Shown one piece after another: positions 25,744 through 29,375 of a stretch of 64,000 nucleotides of DNA. The stretch is from Escherichia coli (GTDB lineage Bacteria > Pseudomonadota > Gammaproteobacteria > Enterobacterales > Enterobacteriaceae). The first letter of the stretch is position 1. Every line of letters begins with the position of its first letter. The stretch lies in assembly GCF_046105845.1 (NCBI RefSeq), contig NZ_CP151004.1. One strand, 5' to 3'. Under the pieces are notes generated by a model. It searched no databases. It was not told the DNA's origin and saw only the letters and a list, made by a program, of their open reading frames with translations. The translations under genes were made by a program, and so were the position numbers.

Positions 25744-27444
25744 ATGATTATCGGTATTGACCTCGGGACGACTAACAGTCTGGCAGCGGTATGGCGAAAT
25801 GGACAAAGTGAACTGATCCCCAATGCGTTAGGCAAGTTTTTAACACCCAGCGTAGTTTGTGTTGACGAAAATGGTATGGTTTTGACAGGGGAGGCAGCTC
25901 GTGACCTGCAACTCATCAAACCACAAAATTGTGCAGCCAATTTTAAACGCATGATGGGCACATCAAAGACGTTTAAATTGGGCGGACGTGAATTTCGGGC
26001 AGAGGAACTCTCATCGCTGATACTGCGTCAGCTAAAAGAAGATGCTGAAAGCTATTTAGGTGAAGAGATAACAGAAGCAGTAATTAGCGTACCTGCTTAT
26101 TTTGGTGATGTGCAACGCAAAGCAACAAAATTGGCAGCTTCAATGGCAGGCTTAAACGTCGAGCGTTTAATTAACGAACCAACCGCCGCTGCACTGGCGT
26201 ATGGTTTGCATAATAAAGATGATGAACATCAATTTTTGGTATTCGATTTAGGTGGTGGTACGTTTGATATCTCCATACTGGAGTTGTTTGACAATATTAT
26301 GGAAGTACGAGCCAGTGCCGGGGATAACTTTTTAGGTGGTGAAGATATTGTCGATATCCTGATCGATGCATATTGCTCAAGGCGGGATCTTCCTGAAAAT
26401 ATTGAATGGCGTGAACCGACACTCCAGCGCAATTTACGCATCGAGGCTGAGCGTGTCAAACGCGTGCTTAGTATGCGCGACGAAGCTACTTTCAGTATGG
26501 AGATTGAAGGAAGGCGATATTACTGGCATCTGACCACAGAAAAATTTGAATTTTTATTACAGACCTTTTTCGAGCGAATACGTATGCCACTGGAACGGGC
26601 AATTCGCGATGCCAAAATTAATATTAGCCAATTAGACCAGGTTGTTCTTGTGGGTGGCACTACACGTATGCCACTGATTCGCAAACTTGTGACACGACTA
26701 TTTGGTCGTATACCGGCAATGCATTTAAACCCGGATGAAGTCATTGCCCAGGGCGCGGCTATTCAGGCAGCACTTAAAGCGCGGCACAGGGAATTACGAG
26801 ATATTGTAGTGACCGATGTTTGCCCTTATACGCTGGGCGTTGATACCTCTAAATCGCTGGGGCATACCCGCGAATCAGGCTATTTTGCACCCGTTATTGA
26901 GCGTAACCGAAGTATTCCTTGTAGTCGCGTTCGTGCCTTTTACACAGCACATGATCAACAAACAGAGGTTAATTTTAAAATCTACCAGGGTGAAAGCAGG
27001 ATGGTGGCTGATAATATTTTCCTTGCGGAGTTGTCAGTGAATGTTCCGCCAAAACCGGCCGGTGATGTGCGTATTGATGTTCGTTTTACGTACGACATTA
27101 ACGGTATTCTTGATGTCGATATCAGCGTGCCACTGACAGGGGCTAAAAATAGTCTGGTTATTGAACAGAATCCAGGGGCATTAACGAAAGAACAAATACA
27201 GCAGTCGTTGTCCAAATTAAGCCTGTTAAAAATTCACCCACGCGATGAACAGATAAACCAGGCCTTTATTGCCCGTCTTGATAATCTCTATCAACTCACC
27301 CTGGCGGAAACACGAGACTGGATAAGCAATTGCTCTCGTCAATTCAGTTATCTACTCGAGAAGCAGGATCCTGATCAACTAGCTGATTTTCGGGCTAAAG
27401 TTGAACCTACATTAGACTCTCTGGAATGGGAGCGTCTGCAATGA
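25744..27444 (+). CDS. Hsp70-family ATPase, HscC-like specialised chaperone (accessory)
   Basis: 566 aa from ATG at 25744 with GAAGAGGA RBS (track ORF begins at an upstream TTG); IGIDLGTTNS, DLGGGTFD and VGGTTRMP ATPase motifs; strong resemblance to remembered HscC; lower GC than flanks. Confidence 0.8.
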   Translation: MIIGIDLGTTNSLAAVWRNGQSELIPNALGKFLTPSVVCVDENGMVLTGEAARDLQLIKPQNCAANFKRMMGTSKTFKLGGREFRAEELSSLILRQLKEDAESYLGEEITEAVISVPAYFGDVQRKATKLAASMAGLNVERLINEPTAAALAYGLHNKDDEHQFLVFDLGGGTFDISILELFDNIMEVRASAGDNFLGGEDIVDILIDAYCSRRDLPENIEWREPTLQRNLRIEAERVKRVLSMRDEATFSMEIEGRRYYWHLTTEKFEFLLQTFFERIRMPLERAIRDAKINISQLDQVVLVGGTTRMPLIRKLVTRLFGRIPAMHLNPDEVIAQGAAIQAALKARHRELRDIVVTDVCPYTLGVDTSKSLGHTRESGYFAPVIERNRSIPCSRVRAFYTAHDQQTEVNFKIYQGESRMVADNIFLAELSVNVPPKPAGDVRIDVRFTYDINGILDVDISVPLTGAKNSLVIEQNPGALTKEQIQQSLSKLSLLKIHPRDEQINQAFIARLDNLYQLTLAETRDWISNCSRQFSYLLEKQDPDQLADFRAKVEPTLDSLEWERLQ

Positions 27445-29375
27445 ACTGCTGGGAAATATTAGGTTTACAACCTGGCGCGGAAGAACGAGATATTAAGCGT
27501 CGTTATGCGCAACTGGTAAAAAATTGCCGCCCGGAAGATTCTCCCGAAGCCTGGCAACAATTGCACGATGCTTATGAACAGGCTTTACGTTATGACGACG
27601 AAGATCAGTGGCAAGAAGAGGAAGAAGAGCAACCGATCAATATATCCAGGGGTATTGTTCATCCTCGTCCTGTGATGACATTTCGCGCACTCAACACCTT
27701 TTCTGGTCATCCACTTCCTGATGTCACTATTAAATCAGAGGAGGAATTCACCTGGCAAGCCGTGCTGGATATGCTCTGTGAGGAGAATGAAGCAACCCCC
27801 GAACACGCCCCCATGCAACTTGCTAAGGCGTTATCTTTCCTTGAGAAAAAAGATCTCAGCTCACGAATGAGCTTTGAAGAAGCGTTATTACTGCATCTTC
27901 ATCGGGTATTCCGGCCATTATTAACTCTCGCTGCTGCACAAACGTTCAGATGGCATTTAGTTGCAGGCAGTCGTCAACCCGTAATCCAGACAGAAATTAA
28001 CGAAAGTTGTCTTCTTTATTATCGCATCGAAAAAGAAATTACCACTTTCTTTGCCAGTAACTTGTCTCCACTGGAAGAAATGGAAAACGGGAAGGAAATG
28101 GCTACGATTTATCAATCATTAAAGGATAATGAAGAGAGCCTGAAATGGTTTGATATCGCAGTATTAAATAAAATTGCTGAATTTGAACTGTCAGACAACT
28201 ATATGGCATTGTTAATAGAGCGTTTATCATATTCCTGGCGAAAAGAAAAAATGATTCGCAAGTGGAAATTAACAGAACGCTTCAATAATTTAGCAATGCA
28301 ACATCATAGTGGATATAAAAAGTTACTAAACGCCATAAAATTAAAAGGTCTTTTTTATTATCCATCTTTTGTATTCCAGTCCTGCTTACATGCTGCAGAG
28401 CAAGACTATTCACTTGCCTGGTATTCTCTTGGCAAAATGTATTACGAAGGTGATGAGGTTTCACAGGATCTAAAATTAGCCTTTAATTGGTTTAGCCGTG
28501 CCGCGCAGCATAATGTTATCGATGCTCAGTATGCGCTGGGCATCATGTATAGCGATGGAAGGGGCACGGATAAGAATATTAGCGAGGCACGAAAATGGTT
28601 ATTACTTGCTGCCCAAAATGGCAACGCATCTGCGCAATATGAGCTTGCCCGTATCTCACGCTTTGCTGTTGAGCCATTACGAAATTATGAAGAAGCATTA
28701 CAGTGGTATTTATCTGCCGCCACACAAGGACATGAACTTGCCCAGTATGAATTGGGACAAATGTATATACAAGGGATTGGCGTGGAGCGCGATGAGGTAC
28801 AGGCCCATCGTTGGTTTTTGCAATCGGCGGAACAGGACCATTCAGACGCACAATATCATACTGCCAGCTTGTATAGTGAAAGTGAGAGTATTCCACAAAA
28901 CCAGGAAAAAGCGCAGTACTGGTTTACCAGAGCTGCAAAAAATGGTTCCGGGGATGCCATGTATGAATTGGGTAAATATTATTTAACCAACAATGATGAT
29001 CCTGAAAATAATGCTGAGGCTATTCAATGGCTTACTGGTGCAGCGCAGCGTGGGAAAATAAAGGCGATATTTTTGTTAGCCGAAATGTATCTCTACGGTA
29101 CAAAAGATGTCGCAAAAGATGAAAATCATGCGCTGCACTGGTACGAAAAAGCGGCGCGTTTAGGGGCAACCGAAGCGCAACACCAGACTGCGGCAATGTA
29201 TGCTCAGGGGACAGGCACTAAAATTGATAATAAACAAGCATGGATGTGGCTAACAATTGCCGGAAATAACAACCCTTGGATTGAAAAAGATGCGTTGCGA
29301 TGCTTAATGTCGGAACAGGATATTCAGGATGCAGAACAAACGGCTGCAAATTGCAAACGTCTGCTAAGGATTTAA
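27441..29375 (+). CDS. J-domain-like / Sel1-repeat protein, DjlB/DjlC-like putative co-chaperone (accessory)
   Basis: 644 aa from the ATG overlapping the upstream stop (ATGA); alternative ATG at 27426; N-terminal J-like helix pattern (WEILGL...RRYAQLVK...) with RPE at the HPD position; about seven Sel1-like repeats C-terminally. Confidence 0.75.
   Translation: MNCWEILGLQPGAEERDIKRRYAQLVKNCRPEDSPEAWQQLHDAYEQALRYDDEDQWQEEEEEQPINISRGIVHPRPVMTFRALNTFSGHPLPDVTIKSEEEFTWQAVLDMLCEENEATPEHAPMQLAKALSFLEKKDLSSRMSFEEALLLHLHRVFRPLLTLAAAQTFRWHLVAGSRQPVIQTEINESCLLYYRIEKEITTFFASNLSPLEEMENGKEMATIYQSLKDNEESLKWFDIAVLNKIAEFELSDNYMALLIERLSYSWRKEKMIRKWKLTERFNNLAMQHHSGYKKLLNAIKLKGLFYYPSFVFQSCLHAAEQDYSLAWYSLGKMYYEGDEVSQDLKLAFNWFSRAAQHNVIDAQYALGIMYSDGRGTDKNISEARKWLLLAAQNGNASAQYELARISRFAVEPLRNYEEALQWYLSAATQGHELAQYELGQMYIQGIGVERDEVQAHRWFLQSAEQDHSDAQYHTASLYSESESIPQNQEKAQYWFTRAAKNGSGDAMYELGKYYLTNNDDPENNAEAIQWLTGAAQRGKIKAIFLLAEMYLYGTKDVAKDENHALHWYEKAARLGATEAQHQTAAMYAQGTGTKIDNKQAWMWLTIAGNNNPWIEKDALRCLMSEQDIQDAEQTAANCKRLLRI

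Follow-up and report, generated by a model that had tools for sequence, protein, structure and literature searches.

The closest described relative of the system studied here is encoded at the hscC locus of Escherichia coli K-12, where the gene order is ybeQ (Sel1), ybeR (DUF1266), djlB, ybeT (Sel1), ybeU (DUF1266), djlC and hscC. The ATPase activity of the Hsp70 protein HscC is reported to be stimulated by DjlC, and HscC to prefer positively charged peptides; moreover, hscC deletion mutants are sensitive to cadmium and to UV, and a role of HscC at the membrane has been proposed (PMC8215388). An original prediction, made from the letters of a 64,000-nt stretch of E. coli contig NZ_CP151004.1 (assembly GCF_046105845.1; hereafter the window, with positions counted from 1 at its first letter), suggested that a translationally coupled pair of genes between topB and gdhA forms an undescribed accessory module analogous to that of K-12, the first gene encoding an HscC-like Hsp70 with three signatures and the second a protein with an N-terminal J-like domain and a Sel1 array. 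We observed that two co-directional open reading frames (ORFs) do occupy the topB-gdhA interval, with the boundaries first proposed, and that the ATG of the second overlaps the stop codon of the first by 4 bp, as ATGA. The domains of the two products and the parallel with the hscC locus, which holds djlB/djlC, Sel1 and DUF1266 genes, were likewise borne out.

On balance, we think it rather probable that this cassette, a chromosomal operon, encodes a second HscC-class Hsp70 and a dedicated co-chaperone, hereafter the adaptor, which targets it to specific clients. Systems in which an HscC-type Hsp70 has a class C J-protein of its own are known; what distinguishes the present variant is the fusion of a J-like domain to Sel1 repeats, an orphan middle domain, the occurrence of adaptors in tandem sets and an RP[DE] triad at the position of the His-Pro-Asp (HPD) motif of J-domains. 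To the extent of our searches the pair is indeed undescribed: RefSeq gives generic names ('Hsp70 family protein', 'J domain-containing' or 'SEL1-like repeat protein') and our literature search found no paper on the cassette.

The first protein matches the Pfam HSP70 family over residues 2-491 (E = 1e-134), and its translation shows three Hsp70 signatures, IDLGTTNS, VFDLGGGTFD and VVLVGGTTRMPLIRK. Full-length identity to K-12 HscC amounts to 43.6%, and identity to DnaK to 36%. The features of the HscC-type subfamily (Kluck 2002) are set out in Mayer (2021; PMC8215388), and when we aligned the cassette Hsp70 with HscC and DnaK we observed that it carries every HscC-specific insertion and deletion listed there. 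Its 566 residues fall within the 550-580 aa of HscC-type proteins, its lid (the alpha part of the substrate-binding domain, SBD-alpha) is shortened, with the same gaps against DnaK as that of HscC, and it has no long C-terminal tail. In lobe I of the nucleotide-binding domain (NBD), the segment equivalent to DnaK 76-101 is deleted, leaving a gap of 22-24 columns as in HscC, and the deletions of the D211 loop and of the GrpE signature (DnaK 290-295) are both common to HscC. Loop L1,2 of SBD-beta bears an 8-residue insertion (SKSLGHTRES), against 4 residues in HscC. The protein differs from DnaK by the missing 76-101 segment, the missing GrpE signature and the short lid, and shares with it the Hsp70 fold and the functional residues. 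Indeed, the catalytic residues D8, K70, E171, D194, T199 and D201 are intact, as are R167, N170, T173, Q378, D393 and P419, at the positions which contact the J-domain in the DnaK-DnaJ structure, and the allosteric residues.

This Hsp70 belongs to a clade of its own, with 75-91% identity among Escherichia and Klebsiella, 61-65% to the two copies of a metagenomic locus and about 43-45% to HscC. Because it is only 43.6% identical to HscC, it is a paralogue of that protein and not its orthologue; it also lies at a different locus, and K-12 has hscC (in the order rihA-hscC-djlC) without this gene.

The second protein (644 aa) was examined with an AlphaFold2 (AF2) model built from 14 family members, which reached a mean confidence (pLDDT) of 86. 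Its N-terminal domain matches Pfam DnaJ weakly (E = 2e-4, residues 3-46, model positions 2-51 of 63), and in the AF2 model it is composed of helices I-III with the J-like geometry of helix II, loop and helix III, helix IV being absent. Over residues 2-50 it is 41% identical to DjlB (E = 2.5e-8) and 35% identical to DjlC, with which it shares the subtype starting MxxCWxIL and lacking helix IV. Helix II has retained its positive charges and helix III its AYE-AL motif. However, the canonical HPD triad that one expects of a J-domain is not there: this position reads Arg30-Pro31-Glu32 (RPE; 27528-27536), whereas DjlB and DjlC have HPE. Compared with DnaJ, the adaptor also lacks the Gly/Phe region, the zinc finger and the C-terminal client-binding beta domains, and carries a Sel1 solenoid instead.

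The replacement of the HPD histidine by arginine raises the question of whether the domain works at all. The J-like domain could be catalytically dead ('type IV'-like), in which case the 644-aa protein might regulate the Hsp70, tether it passively or be its client; in all systems tested stimulation is lost when the His is substituted, a 2026 review presumes that motifs other than HPD and HPE are non-functional, and the weak Pfam score and missing helix IV point in the same direction. We nevertheless consider this explanation unlikely, since no pattern of decay is seen. Across the Escherichia and Klebsiella adaptors P31 and E32 do not vary and R30 almost never does, and the retained features of helices II and III speak against degeneration. 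The E. whittamii orthologue, which is 77% identical and lies behind the same Hsp70, reads HPE. In a J-protein census of 280,000 sequences HPE is found in about 1%, including DjlB and DjlC, and its main text makes no mention of RPD.

We scanned one genome per species for the N-terminal signature M[NST]CWE[IV]LG and obtained 56 loci. The 21 proteobacterial loci (Pseudomonas, Leucothrix, Duganella, Klebsiella) all read RPD or RPE, RPD being fixed in the Pseudomonas, Leucothrix and Duganella partners, and in 12 of them an HscC-like Hsp70 gene lies directly upstream, the two genes overlapping by 4 bp or standing no more than 12 nt apart. The Hsp70s beside RP[DE] partners have R or K at position 167 and retain Q378. 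In Firmicutes, 17 loci read HPE and eight of them have an Hsp70 gene directly upstream. Three Enterococcus loci, L035 and L049 among them, have a degenerate triad (IPD, NMD), and the two Hsp70s found upstream there have N167 and S170, so that R167 and N170 are lost where the motif is degenerate. About 14 further loci, from Marinobacter (L052-L070), encode proteins of some 214 aa which start MNCWEILGI and have no HPD-type loop, with no Hsp70 gene within 7 kb. Because RP[DE] is conserved and R/K167 and Q378 are retained in the partner Hsp70s, the arginine is a conserved alternative and no sign of decay. We also looked for covariation of the R-type or H-type motif with the Hsp70 partner; the discriminating columns were confounded by phylogeny and none lay at a known contact position.

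Behind the J-like domain and an acidic disordered linker, the adaptor has an all-helical middle domain which is essentially confined to the adaptor family and lineage-restricted. A full hidden Markov model (HMM) search of 1.84 billion representative proteins found 14 clusters and did not recover DjlB or DjlC, and Foldseek returned only the adaptor's own family in AFDB50 and generic helical repeats in the PDB. A hidden DUF1266 domain was considered and rejected, as there was no Pfam match and hhalign against YbeR, YbeU and YnjI gave a probability of 0.2%. Kinship with the middle region of DjlB/DjlC is unproven, hhalign giving 0.85% and aligning no more than a pattern of 23 residues (LS..LL.ERL.W). 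Such a link is kept possible by the distant relative P0122 (467 aa), which combines an RPD J-like domain and the adaptor middle domain with a DjlB-like C-terminal anchor. Its gene lies behind an Hsp70 gene, next to a DUF4034 gene, genes for signal-peptide Sel1 and TPR proteins and another Hsp70-J pair. The components known from the K-12 hscC locus are therefore met again there, and in the cassette part of them is fused into one protein.

The C-terminal part of the adaptor is a Sel1 solenoid. Pfam detects eight Sel1 repeats, six of them at E <= 3e-4, and the AF2 model shows confident paired helices across about residues 310-606. The array is about 35% identical to YbeQ. In the PDB it has strong matches to 6ok3 (E = 7e-69) and to the c5321 protein of CFT073 (4bwr; E = 3e-60), and a fold search with the whole adaptor model returned Sel1 arrays as its sole matches. 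An eight-repeat solenoid is thus shared with Sel1-like repeat proteins such as EsiB (c5321) and the Helicobacter Hcp proteins. EsiB and the Hcp proteins are described as secreted or surface proteins, whereas the cassette array is cytoplasmic because it is fused behind a J-like domain and has no signal peptide. Some database homologues are named 'EsiB' on repeat similarity alone.

The comparison with the K-12 locus can be completed as follows. Both modules comprise an Hsp70 of about 560 aa with all HscC insertions and deletions and no GrpE signature, both include Sel1 repeats, and both show adaptor components duplicated in tandem around one Hsp70. DjlB and DjlC each have a tail anchor and the Sel1 proteins of their locus are separately encoded, whereas the cassette fuses J-like domain and Sel1 array into one soluble protein, which ends ...NCKRLLRI without a hydrophobic tail of the DjlB/DjlC type. 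In K-12 hscC is convergent with djlC, whereas the cassette genes are co-directional and overlapping, and no DUF1266 gene belongs to the cassette. At both loci the guanine-cytosine (GC) content is below that of the flanking core genes, with a larger deficit in the cassette (0.43-0.45 against 0.54 in the flanking genes), in agreement with the low GC first proposed. To judge from its locus-tag number, EC042_RS03510 of E. coli 042 may be an hscC-locus gene. This DUF1266 gene was upregulated more than 300-fold in an hns mutant at 25 °C (PMC7582179); if the assignment is right, this would speak indirectly for H-NS silencing of modules of this class.

The cassette was described initially as a two-gene unit, and this is what the window contains, but in relatives the J-Sel1 genes number two or three, and an additional gene is at times present upstream. 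An Hsp70 gene followed by a J-Sel1 gene with the 4-bp overlap is found between topB and gdhA in E. fergusonii and K. oxytoca. In the same slot and again with the overlap, E. whittamii has the Hsp70 gene and two adaptor genes, K. huaxiensis the Hsp70 gene and three tandem adaptor genes (L011, 7001-13401), and another Klebsiella sp. the Hsp70 gene and one adaptor gene split by an insertion sequence (IS). K. spallanzanii, assigned by the gene arrangement itself, has the Hsp70 gene and then two adaptor genes. The relatives have one Hsp70 gene and then one to three divergent partner genes, which remain alike over some 200 N-terminal residues and differ thereafter, and the adaptor paralogues are 35-50% identical while the Hsp70s are 75-91% identical across the same genera. 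More distant pairs in Pseudomonas, Leucothrix and Duganella have the same arrangement: directly behind the gene for an HscC-like Hsp70 (46-54% identical), which it often overlaps by 4 bp, comes a gene whose product begins M[NS]CWE[IV]LG and has an RPD motif. These partners (405-577 aa) show no detected similarity to the adaptor of the window beyond the J-like domain, and they differ also by a host-like GC content and by other genomic neighbourhoods. Owing to the conserved Hsp70, the coupling and the one to three diverging partners, the system looks like one motor with exchangeable client-specific adaptors.

The same contrast between the two modules is visible inside E. coli. Two tandem J-Sel1 genes (649 and 647 aa) were found in 61 genomes, including that of uropathogenic E. 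coli (UPEC) 536 (L074, 6198-10118), in which the two adaptors match at about 47 of 50 positions over their first 200 residues or so and at only 12-22 of 50 (25-45% identity) beyond. In our reading, the part that faces the Hsp70 has been homogenised, which suggests gene conversion, and the part that faces the client has diverged. Since the 5' ends of the adaptor genes are so similar, recombination between them explains how a one-adaptor form like that of the window can arise.

We also estimated the ratio of nonsynonymous to synonymous substitutions (dN/dS). For the Hsp70 gene it is 0.08-0.2; for the adaptor gene it is 0.17-0.19 against E. whittamii and mostly 0.26-0.45 within E. coli, the value of 0.67 for the L002-536B pair coming from near-identical genes with 25 substitutions in all. 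In the acidic linker dN/dS is about 1, and for selD, gdhA and most of topB it is 0.02-0.03. Both cassette genes are under purifying selection, looser than that of the core genes, and we saw no gene-wide positive selection, as gene-wide dN/dS was below 1 throughout the comparisons.

Taken together, these observations are consistent with the following working scheme for a second HscC-class Hsp70 with a targeting co-chaperone. The Sel1 solenoid and the distal half of the middle domain would bind a specific protein client, and the docking site of the J-like domain would be the NBD/linker/SBD-beta interface of the Hsp70 in its ATP-bound state. There, Glu32 could pair with Arg167 and Gln378, and Arg30 could take over the hydrogen-bonding role of the histidine. 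Docking would trigger ATP hydrolysis, whereupon the client would be clamped and remodelled, and nucleotide exchange would be spontaneous, with no need for GrpE, as proposed for HscC. Several points weigh against this scheme. The match to the Pfam J-domain is weak and helix IV is absent; nine of the 21 RP[DE] J-like proteins have no Hsp70 gene within 7 kb; and the cassette is absent from about 93% of E. coli and at times broken by IS elements. In addition, the 2026 review names HPE as the sole tolerated variant of HPD, and changing the HPD His to Gln abolishes ATPase stimulation in all systems tested, so that an arginine at this position is unproven.

To determine how the cassette is distributed, we surveyed 5,426 complete E. 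coli genomes. The Hsp70 gene was found in 365 of them, always as one chromosomal copy, with at least 80% coverage in 361; a cassette at this coverage and free of ynjI was present in 351. The ynjI (DUF1266) allele, named by the original prediction as the K-12 occupant of this position, is indeed what lies between topB and gdhA in K-12 and was found at the locus in 3,457 genomes. The pair is therefore not common to all E. coli. By subtraction, about 1,600 genomes have neither cassette nor ynjI, and most of these probably have an empty site: among three genomes chosen blind to their state, two had a bare 76-bp topB-gdhA spacer and one a cassette with IS1 in the adaptor gene. Strain HH97 has a 544-bp ynjI remnant at the locus. 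An extra upstream gene for a protein of 266-267 aa, between topB and the Hsp70 gene, was found in 96 genomes, including those of Nissle 1917, ABU 83972 and ATCC 25922, and also in E. fergusonii and E. whittamii (L002, 4131-4931; L005, 5434-6234; L014, 2458-3261). Its product has a signal peptide and no match in Pfam, NCBIfam or PADLOC, and its GC content is 0.34. This gene is absent from the window, whose cassette is the minimal form.

The module is dispensable and frequently lost in E. coli. Disrupted copies were encountered: IS1 in the adaptor gene of UPEC_U013 (L071, 1725-4445), IS903B in the Hsp70 gene of TUM14664 and an IS5-family element in a Klebsiella adaptor gene (L013, 3689-6903). 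Frameshifted fragments of cassette genes occur in protein databases and in a Shigella boydii entry. One could suppose, from this breakage, from the absence of the cassette in some 93% of genomes and from the existence of empty-site and remnant alleles, that it is a decaying relic without present function in E. coli and heading for loss. We regard this as highly improbable. The Hsp70 gene is covered to at least 80% in the 361 genomes mentioned, and the examples that we inspected have both ORFs annotated as intact. Both genes have a dN/dS well below 1, whether compared within E. coli or with E. whittamii and E. fergusonii, and gene order, ATGA overlap and motifs are conserved across genera. The absence from most genomes and the IS disruptions do imply that any role is conditional.

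The accessory character first proposed holds within E. coli but not in the sense of an acquired island. Because the same slot is occupied in E. fergusonii, E. whittamii and Klebsiella, the cassette is an old resident of the topB-gdhA slot in Enterobacteriaceae that was lost in many lineages, not an acquired or mobile island. The GC deficit relative to the flanks is 9-11 points in Escherichia and 3-5 points in K. oxytoca, and the Pseudomonas relatives have a host-like GC content. Recent horizontal acquisition was accordingly rejected, on the grounds of the synteny across genera, the partly ameliorated GC content in Klebsiella and the topB 3' end, which differs by locus state. Indeed, the last 87 nt or so of topB (about 25213-25299, the C-terminal tail of Topo III) differ completely between the cassette, ynjI, empty-site and ATCC 25922-type alleles, so that the variable segment starts inside topB, a core gene. 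We read this as exchange of the locus states by homologous recombination in the flanks and not by site-specific insertion. Between strains, topB is 95-97% identical and more divergent than selD (98-99.6%) or gdhA. The gdhA gene of E. fergusonii (L005, 10410-11753) is 83% identical to that of the window, whereas selD and topB, on the opposite side of the cassette, are 94-95% identical, a jump in divergence across the locus.

The original prediction also raised a conflict function, in phage defence or toxin handling. In such a system the diverging Sel1 adaptors would be receptors for proteins of phages or for toxins, which the Hsp70 would then unfold, sequester or inactivate, unless it triggered growth arrest instead. 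The patchy distribution in E. coli with alternative alleles at one locus, the fast divergence of tandem adaptors next to a conserved motor, the low GC content and an adaptor dN/dS above that of core genes would all suit it; elsewhere, Sel1 arrays are fused to caspase, trypsin-like, kinase and TIR domains, and host chaperones can join in phage sensing, as one paper on bNACHT25 and DnaJ indicates. We however find this quite unlikely, as our checks of PADLOC, effectors, genomic context, mobile elements and selection gave it no positive support. PADLOC-DB v2 returned only two marginal partial matches, one to PDC-M61B (E = 8e-4) and a 50-residue repeat match to the PtuA model. No nuclease, protease, TIR, pore or other effector fold was found in the pair, the lone unassigned domain being a generic helical repeat. 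The flanks are core genes in every genus examined, and the context is neither that of a defence island nor that of a mobile element; synteny across genera points to inheritance in place with no island hopping, and gene-wide dN/dS stays below 1. Searches of plasmids and phages gave no relative of the J-plus-middle region, the sole matches being short ones to the J-domain, on megaplasmids also carrying hscC. In the Pseudomonas and Leucothrix relatives examined, the neighbouring genes are ordinary ones of metabolism and regulation.

A metagenomic locus next to rpoD (L010, 2055-15076) has two pairs of Hsp70 and RPD-type J protein, one of the J proteins being tail-anchored and the other split into ORFs of 202 and 251 aa, alongside a DUF4034 protein of 700 aa and signal-peptide Sel1 and TPR proteins, so that the same toolkit is present there in a richer version.

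The features of the window locus are collected in Table 1. Upstream of the Hsp70 gene lies a 444-bp spacer with a GC content of 0.38. The hairpin at its start is likely the topB terminator. Within the repeat which occupies most of the spacer, a site for the ERIC1R primer with one mismatch is present at 25501-25522, and from this site we read the repeat as an enterobacterial repetitive intergenic consensus/intergenic repeat unit (ERIC/IRU) element with an internal insertion; E. coli 536 has a shorter copy in this place, compared with which the insertion measures about 80 bp. This repeat is no part of the function of the operon. The region between the repeat and the Hsp70 gene holds a perfect TGTGA-N7-TCACA palindrome at 25667-25683, about 60 nt before the start codon, which is found once in the window for 0.08 expected and is present also in E. 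coli 536. It resembles a CRP site, with a spacer one base longer than the consensus. A scan of 25572-25743 for consensus sigma-70 promoters gave no site. A ribosome-binding site (RBS), AGAGG, lies at 25733-25737, 6 nt before the ATG. Downstream, the stem-loop between the convergent adaptor and gdhA genes is likely a bidirectional terminator. A search of Rfam with the cassette and its spacers found no RNA family.

Table 1. Features of the topB-gdhA interval, in window coordinates
Feature	Position	Strand	Description
topB	ends 25299		Core flank upstream of the cassette
Hairpin	25317-25355	+	Directly after the topB stop; inverted repeat with 14-nt arms, 93% complementary
Intergenic repeat	25359-25571		Most of the upstream spacer; matched at hundreds of further places in E. 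coli, one of them under yehK
AT-rich upstream region, presumed promoter	25572-25743	+	GC 0.37-0.38; holds palindrome and RBS
Hsp70 gene	25744-27444	+	566 aa; HscC-class Hsp70 ATPase
Adaptor gene (J-like/Sel1)	27441-29375	+	644 aa
J-like domain	27441-27596	+	Residues 1-52; helices 3-7, 15-26, 35-49 (AF2)
Acidic disordered linker	27597-27743	+	Residues 53-101; pLDDT <50 for 54-101
All-helical middle domain, family-specific	27744-28388	+	Residues 102-316; about 105-300 in the AF2 model
Sel1 repeat solenoid	28389-29276	+	Residues 317-612, 8 repeats; presumably binds the client
C-terminal helix and stop codon	29277-29375	+	Helix 625-643 (AF2); no membrane anchor
Stem-loop	29389-29420		Between adaptor gene and gdhA; 12-bp arms 29389-29400/29409-29420, 100% complementary
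gdhA	29431-30774	-	Convergent with the adaptor gene

Since 2002, HscC-type Hsp70s have been left without a physiological client, and the cassette is a simpler form of the system. As J-like domain and Sel1 repeats are fused here, the separate Sel1 proteins of the K-12 hscC locus arguably belong to the same machine, and the fused, soluble adaptor is a ready bait for client finding in tractable strains which bear the cassette, such as Nissle 1917, CFT073 and 536. The conservation of RP[DE] beside Hsp70s with matching contact residues questions the view that HPE alone is tolerated in place of HPD. If the conflict function were true after all, the cassette would represent a defence mechanism without nuclease, NADase or pore effector. 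With one motor gene and one to three diverging adaptors, it is a natural example of J-proteins setting the specificity of an Hsp70, and it offers a handle on two questions, namely what HscC-type systems do and whether HPD variants work.

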